Virus record (IMG/VR): IMGVR_UViG_2877948078_000004
Strand: one strand, 5' to 3'
DNA length: 43,880 bases
Source: a virus
Taxonomy: Duplodnaviria; Heunggongvirae; Uroviricota; Caudoviricetes
A model generated the notes under the pieces. That model ran no database searches. It worked only from the letters and a program-made list of their open reading frames with translations, and was not told where the DNA came from. The position numbers were made by a program, and so were the translations under genes. Positions 98-39,400 of this stretch are shown here, piece after piece; the first letter of the stretch is position 1, and each line of letters begins with the position of its first letter.

Positions 98-673
98 CTA
101 CGGCAGTGCTGGCCATTCAATATCCTGTGCAGTTGACGTATCAACACGGTTCAGCAACACCCGATACTTTTTCCAGGCTTCCAGCAATGAGGTTTCTTCC
201 TCCGTTGCGATTTCCAGATCTACAGCATCCTGAAGTGGCGCAATATGCTCACTGGCTACCTGCATCAGGCTGTTTTTTGTTTCTTCCGCCTCTCGGATCC
301 GGAACAGTTTTTCTGCTTCTGCATCTTTCACCCAGGCTGTGCCGTTCCACTTCTGAAACTCCCCTTCCGGCGATAACCAGGTAACATTTTCCGGTAACGG
401 ACCGAGTTCAGAAATAAATAACGCGTCCCCTGACGCTACGTCATAAACCGTTTTACCCCGATGGTCTTCAACGAGATGCCACGATGCCTTATCACTGTTG
501 AAAACAGCCACAAAGCCAGCAGGAATATCTGGTGGTGCAATATCGGTACTGTTTGCTGGCAGACCTGTATGAGGCGGAATATATGCGTCACCTTCACCAA
601 TAAATTCATTAGTTCCGGCCAGCAGATTATAAATTTTTATGGTCCGTGGTTGTTCACTCATTCTGAATGCCAT
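98..673 (-). CDS. tfa: Tail fibre assembly protein (lambda Tfa-like)
   Basis: 191 aa translation recognisably lambda Tfa-like ([21 protein letters not shown]...); immediately downstream of stf on the same strand with 1-nt overlap. Confidence 0.85.
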
Positions 674-4298: not shown

Positions 4299-4324
4299 AT
4301 AAAAAAGGCGTCATTCCTGACGCC
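4299..4324 (-). terminator. Intrinsic terminator-like hairpin between J and lom
   Basis: On - strand: GGCGTCA-GGAA-TGACGCC followed by TTTTTTATT. Confidence 0.5.
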
Positions 4325-31422: not shown

Positions 31423-31685
31423 AGTTTCACCTCATCAGGTTAACCATCACCACCAACGACGCCAATCGACTGGTGGTGAACTGTGCAAGGTTGGCGTAAC
31501 CGGCTACTCAAATCCGGCGCTCCCGAAGAAGCCCTCACACAGCCCACCATAATTTGGGCGTAGCCGTGCTTAGCGCATAAAAAAACCGCTTAACGCGGTA
31601 TGCGTTGAGTAGTATTCCGGGACGCCAATCCCGTGTGCCGATTTTGCGGCAACGCACAGAATATATCCCCAGATAAATCATGTCG

Positions 31686-32033: not shown

Positions 32034-33930
32034 TTAATTATTTTTCTTTAACTTGAAATTTCTTCCCATTGCTAGTGTTCTTCGAAGATTCGAATCATAA
32101 GCTGGTTGATAATATCTATCATAAAAATCCTTAATTGTCTGATGGTAAGTATCCAGCATCAAACCATAAAACCCCATGACCTTAAGATAATCCACCAAGG
32201 GAAATAAATAATCATCAGTCTGAACATCAGTATCAATATTATTTTTTTGTTTTTTAACTTCAAATTTGTATAAGTTTAACTCACCCTTATCCATCGTGTA
32301 TGAAAAAAGGTCGTCAAAAATCAAATCAATTTTTGTCATAGGAACTCGTTCTTTTCCAGACATTATAGGTAGAATATCAATACCTAAGAGCGAACCTAAT
32401 ACAAAGTCGTAATGAAGCGAAATCACTGAGTCATTCGATGTCGAGTTGCCTTTGATAAATACTCTACTTAGTGCCGAGTCAAAAACATTCTCAACTCTCT
32501 CTCTCGTCATGTTTGCGACATCTACAACCCCCATATCACGAGAAGCTTTTATTGTGATTTCATCTATAAATGCTTTGGAATCTAGTGAATGTAAAAACAA
32601 CATGAAGTTATCTAACTGTTCAGAGCATTTAATAGCCACCATAAGATTTTCGTATATATCTTTTTTATACTCAATCGGTAAATTTGCTACCGCAAAAGCA
32701 GCATAAAATTCTTGCACTGATTTATGCAGAAAAACATACCTATTATTTCCCTCAGGTTGGATAAGGCAAGTTATCTCAATAAGATCATCTATAAAGTTTG
32801 ATGCATCTTCTTTAAGATAACCTTCTGTTTCAATAGCATCTTCAGCATATCTAAGCAACTCCTCTCCCCAAAACTCAAATTTCTCCTCAATCAGTGCGTT
32901 ATAGCAAATAGCTGAAAAACACAATTTAGCTTTTTCACCAATAATGTTTGATTTTTTCTCGCGCGTATATACTTTTATTTTATCATGCCTTGCATATAAG
33001 GTGTCAAAGAGGCTTCGATAAAACTCTATTATATTATTTGGAATATCATTCATATAAGGATAACAATAATACAAAAGAGTAACTAAAATTGGATTGCAAA
33101 TAGTTCCCTCAAGTTCTTCTTTATCACATAGTAAATCCGCCAAGACTTTAAACGAGGCATCACTACTTGAGAATCTGTCATTTTTCGATAAAGAATGAAG
33201 AATACAAATCTTATCAGAAATATTTAGCTTATCTATAAAAATATTATACACATCAGTAGTATAACATATATCTGTATTTGGTCTCGTTGTTGCGATAATT
33301 GGTGTGTTAAAATGATAATGAATGTTTTTTATTTCATTCATCATCATAGTTCGCTCTTCATGTTTAACCTCATCAAATCCATCCAACATTAAAACGACTC
33401 TTTGGGATTGCAGTAATATTTTCAAGCTATCCTCTGAACACCCCACACCAAATGAATTAAGAATGTCTGCCAGATAAGCAATAATATTTGCATTCTTCAC
33501 CCTTCTTAATTCAATAAAAAAAAGGCATCCGTTCTGATTTTTTTATTTCCTCGCTAAACAACTTGCGTAAAATAGTACTTTTCCCTTGCCCCGCTATACC
33601 GACTATATTTACAATACCATGAAATGGTAAAGTGACCCCATCTTTTATAACGACCTTGTCTTTATTAGATGCCACCTCAACAGTTAACGGATAATAAATA
33701 TCATCTAAAAAAATATCATAATCAGCGTTGTGCAAAGTTCTCATTTTCAGAGATGGTAGCACATGCTTTCTTAAATAATTTTCTCTTCCGAGGGGATCAT
33801 TTAATTGTTCGAGTATAACCTTGCCTTCATCTAGGTCCCTAGCCCAAGGTTTAGAGAGCAATACTTCTGTTATTTTTTCCGCAGCTTTTCCTACTGTGCT
33901 ATTAATAATAGTCGCAAGAAACTCATCCAT
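32034..33930 (-). pseudogene. NACHT/STAND-family P-loop NTPase, interrupted by a +1 frameshift at an A8/T8 homopolymer (33516..33523)
   Basis: Upstream ORF (33511..33987) ends just after Walker A (GIAGQGKST); downstream ORF (32034..33500) begins just before Walker B (VVLMLDGFDEV) and sensor-1-like IIATTRP. Removing one T from the T8 run (- strand) fuses both into a single ~630-aa reading frame. Low-GC island. Probable start at MDEFLATI (33930) with GGTGA RBS. Confidence 0.6.
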
Positions 33931-34318
33931 TTTTTCACCACATTCATTAACCAATACGTGGTGCATTCTTACAAGACTCAGTAACAATTGTCAATCATAG
34001 GTTTTCGCATGATTGCAAAACGCCATAAACAATTGTAGCACCATAATTTTAAACACTATATAATATACAACCTTCCTACAAGCATTCAGTACATCGCTTA
34101 ATCACAGGGCTTGAATATATAGTAAGGAATCGATATTAATCACCTCATCTACTTTAAACATCTTACACACCTATAATTTATAATAGTCAACACGAGGTCA
34201 TCATATTAAACATGCAATTACAAACATTCATTTTTATATAAATTTTCATGATTTAACCGTAGAGCGACGGTAATAAATTTCATATACAAGGATTTAAGCT
34301 CCCATACGTTTTCTATTA

Positions 34319-36817: not shown

Positions 36818-37048
36818 TTAAGCTGCGTTCTTTTCGGTGTGTGGAAACAACTTCGGAAGATCCGGGCGAATCTGGTATGCCTTCACTACTCCACCAGTAG
36901 CCGTAACAATGCTGCCGACATGTTCAGGGGATACCTTTGCTTTGTTGTGAAGCCACTTATAGACGGCCTGCTGTGAAACTTCGCAGGCAGCGCCCAGTTT
37001 CTTTTGTGAACCAACGATATTGATCGCTGTTTTGATAGCTGGGTTCAT
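36818..37048 (-). CDS. cro: Cro-like HTH repressor (YdaS/Cro family)
   Basis: 76 aa with HTH (QKKLGAACEVSQQAVYKWL), divergently transcribed from cI across the operator region. Confidence 0.75.
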   Translation of the reverse strand: MNPAIKTAINIVGSQKKLGAACEVSQQAVYKWLHNKAKVSPEHVGSIVTATGGVVKAYQIRPDLPKLFPHTEKNAA

Positions 37049-37145
37049 AACAACCTCCGTGGTTAATTTGAATCAAGATTAAAACTATGGTTGTTTTTAG
37101 TCAACAACCATTTTCGTTTGATGGAATAAAACCTTGGTTGTACAT
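37049..37145. promoter_or_regulatory. OR operator/promoter region (pR / pRM) between cro and cI
   Basis: Perfect palindrome ATGGTTGTT-N7-AACAACCAT at 37087..37111 plus additional GGTTGT/AACAACC half-sites at 37049..37055 and 37135..37140. Confidence 0.7.
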
Positions 37146-37152
37146 TTGGACT

Positions 37153-37842
37153 ATGAAAACAACACTCTCAGAAAGACTTAAAGAAGCCAGATTAGCGCGA
37201 GGCCTTACACAAAAGGCGCTTGGGGATTTGGTCGGGGTTAGCCAGGCTGCTATTCAGAAAATCGAAACAGGGAAAGCTAATCAAACAACTAAAATCGTGG
37301 AGATCGCGAACGCTTTGGGTGTGCGCGCAGAATGGTTATCTTCTGGCGTTGGAAATATGTCAGACAGTACAGTGCAACCAATACAATCAACTGTCAGCCA
37401 TTCCAAATACTTCAAGATTGACGTTCTTGATATAGAAGTCAGTGCTGGGCCGGGAGTCATCAACCGTGAGTTTGTAGAAGTTCTACGCTCGGTTGAGTAC
37501 TCGTTTGACGATGCTCGTCACATGTTCGATGGTAGGAAGGCAGAAAATATCCGCATCATTAACGTGCGTGGTGACAGCATGTCAGGAACGATCGAACCAG
37601 GTGATCTGCTGTTCGTTGATATCACGGTTAAATCTTTCGACGGTGATGGTATCTATGCATTTCTGTACGACGACACCGCCCATGTAAAGCGCCTGCAAAT
37701 GATGAAGGATAAACTGCTGGTTATCTCTGATAACAAGAGCTACTCACCGTGGGACCCTATCGAGAAAGACGAGATGAACCGGGTATTCATATTCGGTAAG
37801 GTTATTGGGAGCATGCCGCAGACGTACAGAAAACACGGATAA
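37153..37842 (+). CDS. cI: CI-like prophage repressor (HTH + S24 LexA-like autopeptidase domain)
   Basis: N-terminal HTH (LTQKALGDLVGVSQAAIQKIETGK), C-terminal S24 motifs (…VRGDSMSGTIEPGDLLFVD…KRL…). Start taken as MKTTLSERLKE (no SD, consistent with a leaderless pRM transcript); track ORF begins at 37087 inside the operator. Confidence 0.85.
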   Translation: MKTTLSERLKEARLARGLTQKALGDLVGVSQAAIQKIETGKANQTTKIVEIANALGVRAEWLSSGVGNMSDSTVQPIQSTVSHSKYFKIDVLDIEVSAGPGVINREFVEVLRSVEYSFDDARHMFDGRKAENIRIINVRGDSMSGTIEPGDLLFVDITVKSFDGDGIYAFLYDDTAHVKRLQMMKDKLLVISDNKSYSPWDPIEKDEMNRVFIFGKVIGSMPQTYRKHG

Positions 37843-37923
37843 TCAGCCGCGTGTTGATGAGGCTTTTGGGTAATACGCTGAAGAAAATACCTTATAAAAA
37901 ATAACATTACGGGAAAGGCAAAA

Positions 37924-38187
37924 ATGAGTAATAAAACACTTGTTAAAAAATCAAATAACTGTGTCGATGCATACGCCGACGCGTTTGGCTACTCTTCGTT
38001 TGGTGACGGCTCTCAGCGCCTAGGTTCAATTTCTTTTTTTCATAATGTAACTGAATGGCCTGTTGATGAAAGTGACGATGTTGAGAACATAAAGTACAAC
38101 ATTGCAACCATTAGAATGCCCGAAGAATTGATGCTTAAATTGGCTGACTTCATTCGCGACCAGCATGACAAAGCTAAAACAAACTAA
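37924..38187 (+). CDS. Hypothetical protein (87 aa) co-oriented downstream of cI (rexA position)
   Basis: ORF in AT-rich segment immediately after cI, same strand; no recognisable family. Confidence 0.5.
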   Translation: MSNKTLVKKSNNCVDAYADAFGYSSFGDGSQRLGSISFFHNVTEWPVDESDDVENIKYNIATIRMPEELMLKLADFIRDQHDKAKTN

Positions 38188-38199
38188 TCGTAATTAATT

Positions 38200-38643
38200 A
38201 TGAAACACGATTATTACGAAGCTCCAAACCTAAATGATAAAATTGCAAAGGCGGCAGAATCATTTTGTTTGCACTCCAGTGCGTCTTCCCAGCTAGCAGG
38301 TATATCTGGAAAAAGATGGGACATGCTACAATCAAGTGGTAGCAGTGGGTCTGGGAGTGATAACATGCCTGAAAAAGTTGCAAAACTGGAGTCCGATGTT
38401 GCTCATATCAAACGAGACGTTGATGAACTTAAAACAGACGTTAAAGCTATCGACAAAAATATGATAACTATTCTTGCACGTCTGGACTCTATAAAAGAAT
38501 CCTTAACAAACAAGCCATCAAGTGATGCTGTCGATAGAAAGATTTCAGACGCAAAGCTTGCGGTATTGCTTGGTGTTCCAGCAATCATCGCTGCAGGAAC
38601 AGGACTTTATAAGCTATCAATGTACTTTTTCTTTAGTGCTTAA
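38200..38643 (+). CDS. Hypothetical protein (147 aa) with coiled-coil region and C-terminal transmembrane helix (rexB position)
   Basis: Heptad-like charged region (KVAKLESDVAHIKRDVDELKTDVKAIDKNMITILARLDSIKESL) and C-terminal hydrophobic segment (LAVLLGVPAIIAAGTGLYKLSMYFFF). Confidence 0.5.
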   Translation: MKHDYYEAPNLNDKIAKAAESFCLHSSASSQLAGISGKRWDMLQSSGSSGSGSDNMPEKVAKLESDVAHIKRDVDELKTDVKAIDKNMITILARLDSIKESLTNKPSSDAVDRKISDAKLAVLLGVPAIIAAGTGLYKLSMYFFFSA

Positions 38644-38720
38644 GCAAATGCTCGCCCCCTTGCATTAGGTAAAGCGATTTTTCATTCCCCATTACCCTCG
38701 CTCTTAACCAATCATCTAAA

Positions 38721-38747
38721 CCCGGCCACCGTGCCGGGTTTTCTTTT
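38721..38747 (+). terminator. Intrinsic terminator after the cI operon (tImm-like)
   Basis: CCCGGC-CACCGT-GCCGGG followed by TTTTCTTTT on + strand. Confidence 0.6.
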
Positions 38748-38844
38748 GCCCTCCCCTCATCATACACCGTTCAAAAAAACCACCACGACCTCGCTTCAGT
38801 TATCGCTATGCGATGCAAGTCACAAAATAAATCCATCTTAAATA

Positions 38845-38910
38845 CAACCAGTTATATCTAAAACAACCAACAAAACAACTTTTGTTGTTGGCGATAAAAC
38901 AACTATAGTT
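38845..38910. promoter_or_regulatory. Candidate OL operators / pL promoter
   Basis: Repeated ACAACC/GGTTGT-type half-sites (same motif as OR), including palindrome CCAACAAAACAACTTTTGTTGTTGG; candidate -35 TTGTTG / -10 TATAGT (38904..38909) reading rightward on + strand. Confidence 0.5.
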
Positions 38911-39109
38911 TTAAATGAGTTCATCGCAACAACACAACGATACGGCAACCACCTGATTCACCGTTGCGATGACCGCTTAGATCCGCAGCTTGAATTTCAG
39001 CAGGCTTCGGGGAGTGCGAGGGATGAAACGGACGCGTGAACGTCGGTGTGACCAGCTGAAATCAACTCAACATTTCATACCTTAGTCGCTTCAACGAGGC
39101 GGCTTAGTT

Positions 39110-39400
39110 ATGACAACCGGCGGCCATCCACCGCCTGAATACGCGCAGAAGTCTTTATATGTTCAGCAGCCCAGCTTACGGGCAGGAGTTTTTATGGTTC
39201 ATCAACATTACGGAACGCAGACCGTTAATCGCGGTGCGGTCATGCCAGGAATGCTGGTCAAACGCAAAGATGGTACCTGGACTGCATCAGCTAATTTACG
39301 CGGACGACTTTATCTGCATCGCGGCATTGAGCGCACTTATACCCGTGACTTGCTCGTGGAAGTTTTTCTCGACGGACGCGGCAACGGTCTGAATCACTAA
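39110..39400 (+). CDS. Hypothetical early-left protein (kil/cIII position)
   Basis: 96 aa ORF directly upstream of and in frame with gam, separated by a TAA; no recognisable family. Confidence 0.4.
   Translation: MTTGGHPPPEYAQKSLYVQQPSLRAGVFMVHQHYGTQTVNRGAVMPGMLVKRKDGTWTASANLRGRLYLHRGIERTYTRDLLVEVFLDGRGNGLNH

Follow-up and report, generated by a model that had tools for sequence, protein, structure and literature searches.

A repressor-linked two-gene cassette of a lambdoid Escherichia coli prophage: a possible modular exclusion system with a membrane-tethered head

Phage lambda carries two genes, rexA and rexB, between its repressor gene cI and the leftward operator OL, and RexA has been proposed to be an infection sensor that activates the RexB channel (PMC8585504, PMC6426596). 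Salmonella phage BTP1 carries bstA, also downstream of cI, at a known mosaic hotspot where it is highly expressed in lysogeny (PMC8585504). At the inner membrane, injection is blocked by SieA of P22 (PMC10883804) and by gp15 of HK97 (PMC3594210), an exclusion moron whose gene occupies a tail site adjacent to the tape measure gene (PMC3594210). The subject of the present analysis is a pair of genes, here called orf87 and orf147, in the virus record IMGVR_UViG_2877948078_000004, a stretch of 43,880 nucleotides that is referred to as a whole as the window. The pair lies in the position equivalent to that of rexAB: the order is cI, rexA, rexB, OL in lambda, and cI, the pair, a terminator and the presumed OL here. 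An earlier note, made from the sequence alone, had described this cassette and proposed superinfection exclusion or abortive infection as its role. The reading favoured here, which is held tentatively, is that the prophage carries the pair as cargo on the repressor transcript and that the two proteins form an exclusion module with a Rex-like output of membrane permeabilisation. Repressor-linked exclusion cargo made of one cytoplasmic and one membrane protein is known; what is new is the two proteins themselves and their proposed head-on-a-tether design, of which none of the databases or papers searched has a description.

Both genes follow the repressor gene on its strand, orf87 at 37924..38187 and orf147 at 38200..38643 (plus strand). 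The repressor gene itself (37153..37842, plus strand) encodes a cI-type prophage repressor with HTH_3 (PF01381) and Peptidase_S24 (PF00717) domains; the longest form of its open reading frame (ORF) begins at 37087, the RefSeq form has 229 amino acids, and the protein is annotated in RefSeq, at locus L001, as the S24 family peptidase WP_000858975.1. The distance from the cI stop at 37842 to orf87 is 81 nt, and the gap between orf87 and orf147 is only 12 nt. An intrinsic terminator on the plus strand (38718..38751) ends the unit, with a stem of 9 bp and 6 G-C pairs at 38718-38741 that is followed by a T-run; its predicted folding energy of −15.1 kcal/mol (z = −3.78) was matched by 0 of 200 shuffled sequences. 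The G+C content of the cassette is 0.38-0.41, as compared with 0.46 for cI and 0.50-0.55 for gam, bet and exo. The earlier description of an AT-rich pair of 87 and 147 codons, on the same strand as cI and closed by a clean terminator, is therefore confirmed in each of these respects.

How this cargo is bounded becomes apparent when the 2 kb around the cassette are searched against E. coli genomes, of which 2234 match; many of the loci have the same flanks and different middles. Five such alleles were fetched (L095-L099). All five have kil and gam downstream, and the repressor protein WP_000858975.1 is identical in L095, L097, L098 and L099 and represented by a close variant in L096. In pairwise blastn with every one of these alleles, similarity breaks on the left at 37841-37870, at the cI stop codon, and on the right at 38718-38721, at the start of the terminator stem, indicating that the pair is exchangeable cargo embedded in the cI unit, within a variable slot at 37843..38717 (plus strand). 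The terminator is common to all slot alleles. One allele (L098, from strain R14) holds about 120 bp of unrelated sequence without an annotated gene, and the other four hold, always on the cI strand, a Panacea-domain protein with a hypothetical protein, a 353-aa protein with an ASCH-domain protein, a BamE-like lipoprotein, or a DUF7946 protein. No other argument from sequence for a predicted co-transcription of the pair with the repressor is as strong as this layout between cI and the terminator, and the rexAB position and predicted co-transcription that the earlier note had put forward are thus strongly supported by a slot that is delimited by the cI stop and a shared terminator.

The two ORFs are annotated in RefSeq (WP_000066829 and WP_012565042), each of the proteins is found on at least 1000 contigs, and the whole cassette is present in 198 of 5426 complete E. 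coli genomes (3.6%), in 152 of those at 99% identity or more, the carriers including Shiga toxin-producing E. coli of serogroups O26 and O103. Furthermore, both frames are open across Escherichia, Salmonella, Klebsiella, Pantoea, Serratia, Rahnella and other genera, with many synonymous changes in the conserved part. Based on these observations, the ORFs are genes and not chance reading frames. The opposite view, that they are non-functional filler, either open by chance or decaying remnants, could draw on the frequency with which gene callers cut orf147 to 90-108 aa and on occasional frameshifted copies. It is effectively refuted by the maintenance of both frames with synonymous change across Enterobacterales genera, by the 421 protein clusters that are retrieved with a profile of the orf147 core, and by the retention of the pairing in 86 of 90 loci, and is considered extremely improbable.

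The product of orf87 is a small soluble protein of 87 aa without any hydrophobic segment. Its AlphaFold2 (AF2) model, with a pLDDT of 78, predicts a β-sheet (strands 20-26, 33-46 and 54-66) followed by a C-terminal helix (67-86). The protein matches phrog_4231 (7e-54), a family of unknown function, and an exhaustive HMMER search of 1.84 billion proteins with its profile returned eight representatives at 50% clustering, all of about 90-100 aa, with no fusion to an informative domain among the eight.

The 147-aa product of orf147, by comparison, is built of five parts. A variable N-terminal segment (codons 1-41, 38200..38322) is followed by a flexible linker rich in Gly and Ser (codons 42-55, 38323..38364), a continuous coiled coil of about seven heptads (codons 56-103, 38365..38508), a KKPS hinge with a juxtamembrane helix, and a single C-terminal transmembrane (TM) helix (the last two parts together being codons 104-139, 38509..38616), all on the plus strand. 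Residues 56-103 keep a single heptad register, with hydrophobic residues at 14 of 14 a/d positions, and the only hydrophobic segment spans residues 118-139 (Kyte-Doolittle 1.80, with the hydropathy peak at 118-136). The AF2 model of orf147 is consistent with this division, showing a low-confidence helix at 10-27, a disordered Gly/Ser stretch at 28-55, a helix at 56-103, a break at KPSSD and a helix at 109-146. A signal peptide is absent from both orf87 and orf147. Hydropathy, heptads and AF2 thus bear out what the earlier note had read from the sequence, a soluble partner beside a coiled-coil protein with a C-terminal TM helix. Among 123 distinct proteins of the orf147 family, mean pairwise identity is 0.11 in the N-terminal segment, 0.35 in the linker, 0.60 in the coiled coil, 0.79 in the hinge and juxtamembrane region, 0.73 in the TM helix and 0.28 in the last residues, making the hinge and membrane helix the most conserved part. 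The residues K105, P106, I115, A118, K119, L120, L124, V126, P127 and T134 are invariant, and invariant Pro, Gly and Thr residues lie within the helix.

In public annotations, orf147 homologues are often called from an internal Met as proteins of 90-108 aa, and some pipelines label them “outer membrane murein-binding lipoprotein Lpp” or “Hemolysin XhlA”, names that look like coiled-coil artefacts. The short calls were rejected as the true protein: every allele keeps the longer frame open and conserved, and this frame varies together with the partner.

It is this co-variation that gives the family its modular character. The genes that precede orf147 homologues fall into classes that have no mutual similarity by blastp and are all of unknown function: the orf87 type (phrog_4231), a 93-aa type (phrog_12039), an 88-aa type, three groups of about 140 aa that all match phrog_5893, and a Cys-rich, zinc-ribbon-like type of about 119 aa (phrog_4293). 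Each version of orf147 consists of an N-terminus, then the Gly-rich linker, then the conserved core. The N-terminus is conserved within a partner class and wholly different between classes, and no N-terminal type is common to two classes; partner class and N-terminal type agree with an adjusted Rand index of 0.73, some classes splitting further. A profile comparison is suggestive of a common fold for the orf87, 93-aa and 88-aa types, a link that was not adopted at an hhalign probability of only 30% (E = 5e-4).

The joint at which these parts are exchanged can be located by comparison with Salmonella phage UPF_BP1. Nucleotide similarity to the window (84%) extends from orf87 through codon 58 of orf147 and ends at 38372, where the coiled coil starts. 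Beyond this point UPF_BP1 has another coiled-coil/TM tail, with only 33% identity in the core alignment. The head, consisting of orf87 and the N-terminus of orf147, has therefore moved as one unit, with the linker as the recombination joint; the linker itself is assigned from the alignment and the AF2 disorder. Other tail-anchored coiled-coil proteins stand behind the orf87-type partners of Serratia (after Mnt) and of Raoultella (at the tail site); they have the same layout of an N-terminal segment, a Ser/Gly linker, a coiled coil and a TM helix, and a different sequence. A related observation concerns P0070, an E. coli protein of 134 aa, in which a natural in-frame fusion has brought the first ~58 residues of an orf87-type protein together with the C-terminal half of a tail-anchored protein of the UPF_BP1 type. 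The sequence at the joint, DVENIK, is present in both parents, which suggests that this fusion may have arisen by deletion between short repeats.

A single query returns 65 clusters of orf147 homologues and the conserved-core profile 421, of which the 120 that are listed have lengths of 90-178 aa and none with a Pfam domain; every homologue match with a named organism is from the Enterobacterales. Genomic context was collected from 92 loci in genomes and viral contigs, 90 of them informative. In 86 of the 90, an ORF on the same strand ends no more than 60 nt upstream of the orf147 homologue, mostly less than 15 nt. When these loci are reduced to 47 distinct combinations of partner and orf147 homologue, 25 stand directly behind repressors of the cI type, whose kinds number at least three and include various S24 types and short helix-turn-helix proteins (CI_repr-type) without the S24 domain, two follow Mnt in a P22-like immI region, six lie beside a DUF6246 gene in the tail-chaperone position, upstream of the tape measure gene, and one lies beside an antirepressor gene; the other 13 are without an assigned site, several of them being on short contigs. 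In P22 the gene order is gene 16, sieA, orf59a, mnt, arc, ant, gene 9. In UPF_BP1 (L002) the pair spans the interval from the end of mnt to gene 16, replacing orf59a and sieA, and relatives are found between mnt and the gene 16 homologue not only in this phage but also in locus L049 and in Serratia (L100 and L101), where the orf87-type partner after Mnt is accompanied by a divergent tail-anchored protein. In all, the pair family is found at three sites that are known, from their characterised occupants, for exclusion genes.

The conserved core is not confined to phages. In Pantoea and Erwinia chromosomes (L020-L025) it is found at one conserved site beside an AraC-type regulator. Two of the Pantoea loci (L021 and L024) have the core alone, without a partner and without the N-terminal segment, and at the other loci the core is preceded by a divergent coiled-coil/TM paralogue of 85-99 aa. 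A host origin of the phage module is possible on this basis. At some loci of Klebsiella and other sources, moreover, tiny hydrophobic ORFs separate the repressor gene from the partner gene: ORFs of 39 aa at 4300..4419 in L013-L015, and ORFs of 56-61 aa, with two hydrophobic stretches each, upstream of the partner in L071 and L073. These ORFs could represent a third component.

Profile and structure searches, which the earlier note had proposed as a check, assigned neither protein to a characterised family, whether of defence or of another function. In Pfam, orf87 had no match at E ≤ 1 and orf147 gave only sub-threshold coiled-coil matches, nothing exceeded the NCBIfam cutoff for either protein, and in PHROGs both belong to families of unknown function. 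A sequence profile search of the PDB yielded only generic coiled coils and no family, and a structure search of BFVD yielded no match for the model of either protein. PADLOC-DB v2 gave no match for orf87. Direct comparison with lambda RexA and RexB, P22 SieA and orf59a showed no similarity, so that the earlier statement that the pair resembles neither RexA/RexB nor a recognisable family stands after searches of Pfam, NCBIfam, PADLOC, PHROG, PDB and BFVD.

Against this background, RexAB, with which Sbash gp30/gp31 is grouped, is one of the closest known systems. The resemblance consists in the position after cI, on the same strand and before OL and the leftward promoter PL, and in the combination of two genes, one for a cytoplasmic and one for a membrane protein. 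The proteins themselves differ: RexA has 279 aa and the DUF4747 domain that serves as the criterion for this family (PMC6426596), whereas orf87 has 87 aa and no Pfam match, and neither blastp nor a profile search relates it to lambda RexA; RexB has four TM helices, whereas orf147 has a coiled coil and one C-terminal TM helix, and there is no sequence similarity. With SieA the family shares the slot between mnt and gene 16, in which relatives of the pair replace sieA and orf59a, and a predicted inner-membrane location in the lysogen, although the window pair itself, unlike these relatives, sits in the lambdoid cI slot. SieA, of a type defined by three or four TM helices in the inner membrane, works without a partner and has three TM segments and the conserved motif FxRYPxEAxxFNK (PMC10883804), whereas orf147 has one TM helix, lacks this motif, is encoded with a partner gene and shows no similarity to SieA. 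Like HK97 gp15, some relatives lie between the gene in the tail-chaperone position and the tape measure gene and are predicted to include a small inner-membrane protein, and both families have chromosomal relatives outside prophages, YebO in the case of gp15 and the Pantoea core in the case of orf147. HK97 gp15 has been described as one small protein with YebO as a relative (PMC3594210), as opposed to a pair with a long coiled coil. BstA also lies downstream of cI, presumably on the repressor promoter (PMC8585504), but it is a single protein that is reported to localise to sites of phage DNA replication (PMC8585504), and neither orf87 nor orf147 matches the PADLOC BstA model. Finally, the XhlA-like “hemolysins” (PF10779; phrog_1193 and phrog_937) are likewise short proteins with an N-terminal coiled coil and a C-terminal TM helix. 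The corresponding PHROG matches of orf147 are weak (1.4e-4 and 1.2e-3), and one UniRef family entry bears the title “Hemolysin XhlA”, but the Pfam XhlA score of 12.1-13.9 bits compares with a threshold of 34.7, and XhlA is found in lysis cassettes whereas the orf147 family is found in immunity regions.

A mechanism that would accommodate these properties can be outlined. The cI promoter would drive a transcript through cI, orf87 and orf147 to the terminator. The C-terminal helix of orf147 is predicted to insert into the inner membrane, leaving the N-terminal ~117 residues in the cytoplasm with the coiled coil as an oligomeric stalk, as argued from the lack of a signal peptide, the tail-anchor topology and the perfect heptads. 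The strict co-variation of partner and N-terminus, together with the exchange of the head as a unit, suggests that orf87 may bind the N-terminal segment of orf147, in which case a small cytoplasmic head would hang from the stalk on the Gly/Ser linker. This head may be the specificity element that recognises a component of the incoming or replicating phage, and the conserved hinge and TM part may deliver a common output. The most likely output would be a Rex-like permeabilisation or depolarisation of the membrane that aborts the infection, with a block of genome entry as a close second; permeabilisation is favoured because no other part of the family is as constrained as the hinge and helix. 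It is conceivable, if still short of an even prospect, that with this pair E. coli represents a class of modular prophage exclusion systems that has not been described before. In such a class a conserved tail-anchored coiled coil would bear, on its flexible linker, a short docking segment for one of several unrelated small heads, heads would be swapped by recombination at the linker to retarget the system, and all three classical exclusion slots of enterobacterial temperate phages (after cI, after Mnt, and between tail chaperone and tape measure) would have been colonised. The exclusion or abortive-infection function that the earlier note proposed has thereby gained comparative support from the three exclusion slots, the variable head and the conserved membrane part, while the function itself continues to be inferred.

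Several points weigh against this reading. All of its functional steps rest on position and architecture, and the AF2 model of orf147 is of low confidence (pLDDT 59). The matches of orf147 in PADLOC-DB v2 are confined to PbeC, LmuB and JetC, models with lengths of 588-1365, at E = 0.004-0.04 and about 10-13 bits, and are read as coiled-coil noise. A literature search by accessions, locus tags, PHROG identifiers and architecture found no mention of either protein, one relevant screen from 2025 being outside its coverage. The slot may also hold non-defence cargo, such as the BamE-like lipoprotein. Lastly, the partner-less Pantoea cores indicate that the core alone is tolerated and may be a mere anchor, and the orf87-type heads on unrelated tail anchors indicate that the membrane part may be a generic tether, which would favour a block of entry. 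According to the latter explanation, the coiled-coil/TM protein does no more than keep the head next to the inner membrane, on the cytoplasmic side. The head would there attach to the ejection proteins of an incoming phage, to its tape measure or to the leading end of its DNA and stop injection, leaving the cell alive. The replacement of sieA in P22-like phages and the use of the HK97 gp15 site are consistent with this idea, as both known occupants are injection blockers, and both the unrelated anchors and the tolerated cores are what it would expect. Yet the identity of 0.79 in the hinge and 0.73 in the TM helix, with invariant Pro, Gly and Thr in the helix, exceeds what a passive anchor needs, a cytoplasmic head, as implied by the lack of signal peptides, would meet the phage only once the channel has crossed the membrane, and neither similarity to SieA nor its motif is present. 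A pure entry block is therefore regarded as unlikely, if a serious contender.

Two further explanations dispense with exclusion altogether. The pair might serve lysogenic conversion or prophage housekeeping, as a factor of membrane stress or physiology or by regulating induction, antirepressor or lysis functions of the same prophage. Repeated adjacency to immunity and antirepressor genes (mnt-arc-ant, Ant, KilA-N), the chromosomal version beside an AraC-type regulator in Pantoea and Erwinia, suggesting a host origin, and the weak XhlA-like PHROG matches would all fit such a role. Adjacency to immunity genes is, however, expected of any cargo expressed in the lysogen, the XhlA and all other coiled-coil matches are far under the family thresholds, and rapid swapping of heads would not be expected, so that this explanation, too, appears unlikely. 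Alternatively, orf147 might be a membrane toxin and orf87 an antitoxin acting through its N-terminal segment, the benefit being retention of the prophage by post-segregational killing. The order of a small protein first and a membrane protein second with tiny gaps is compatible with this, the strict co-variation of partner and N-terminus is as expected for cognate neutralisation, and a Panacea-led pair occupies the same slot in another allele, Panacea being an antitoxin domain. Nevertheless, the Pantoea cores persist without partner and N-terminal segment, the natural fusion P0070 joins orf87 in frame to the C-terminal half of a tail-anchored protein, plasmid-style addiction is of little gain to an integrated prophage, and the diversity of heads goes beyond what neutralisation needs. 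Toxin-antitoxin-like stabilisation is accordingly judged quite improbable, and a two-protein exclusion module with a permeabilising output is retained as the tentative preference.

The cassette belongs to a lambdoid prophage immunity region whose orientation in the window is that of lambda leftward. On the minus strand the replication genes P and O come first, then a YdaT-like gene and then the YdaS/cro-like gene, and the plus strand carries cI, orf87, orf147, the terminator, an operator-like region, kil, gam, bet and exo. The cro-like YdaS gene (36818..37048) diverges from cI. E. coli 2014C-4135 has a near-identical prophage at its tRNA-Arg/fimZ site, with both ORFs labelled as hypothetical proteins, and E. 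coli O26:H11 11368 is another carrier of the cassette, its locus tag ECO26_0580 being cited in the annotation of UPF_BP1. Repeats with AACAAC half-sites at 38860..38940 (assigned to no strand) were recognised from the sequence itself and are presumed, based on the lambdoid gene order, to be the OL/PL region that would start the unit of kil, gam, bet and exo. A perfect palindrome with 9-bp arms (ATGGTTGTT...AACAACCAT) at 37087-37111, between cro and cI, is built of the same half-sites, and the palindrome and the repeats are presumed to be the OR (rightward) and OL operators, respectively. A promoter-like site on the minus strand, from 38929 to 38902, is directed back at the cassette. Between the presumed OL/PL and kil (39194..39400), the interval 38950..39193 has no evident ORF for an N-like antiterminator, its sole ORF being a 96-aa frame that is an upstream extension of kil.

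Elsewhere in the window, a 488-aa ORF and an adjacent ORF of ~140-158 aa lie beyond the replication gene P on the minus strand (32034..33987), with a G+C content of 0.29-0.37. The matching RefSeq prophage annotates these as a NACHT domain-containing protein and a hypothetical protein, beside a truncated ren, and they are likely to be a second defence-type cargo. Rfam matches above the gathering score identify adjoining C4 antisense RNA (72 bits) and isrK Hfq-binding RNA (61 bits) at 31469..31651 on the minus strand, and a full-length IS009 RNA match (227 bits) lies at 132..330 on the same strand.

Were the pair to have no anti-phage phenotype, it would still be a clean case of a tail-anchored family of unknown role that is predicted to be expressed in the lysogen. 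The series of alleles of the cI slot, comprising an empty one, the pair and four other cargos, is moreover a natural experiment on the turnover of cargo in a repressor operon. If the pair is indeed a defence module, it would be a compact and widespread system of ~0.7 kb with relatives across the Enterobacterales, one that present-day databases for the detection of defence systems miss and for which gene finders even give wrong calls. As its swappable recognition head is separate from the conserved membrane part, chimeras with exchanged heads could test directly how such a system chooses its target.

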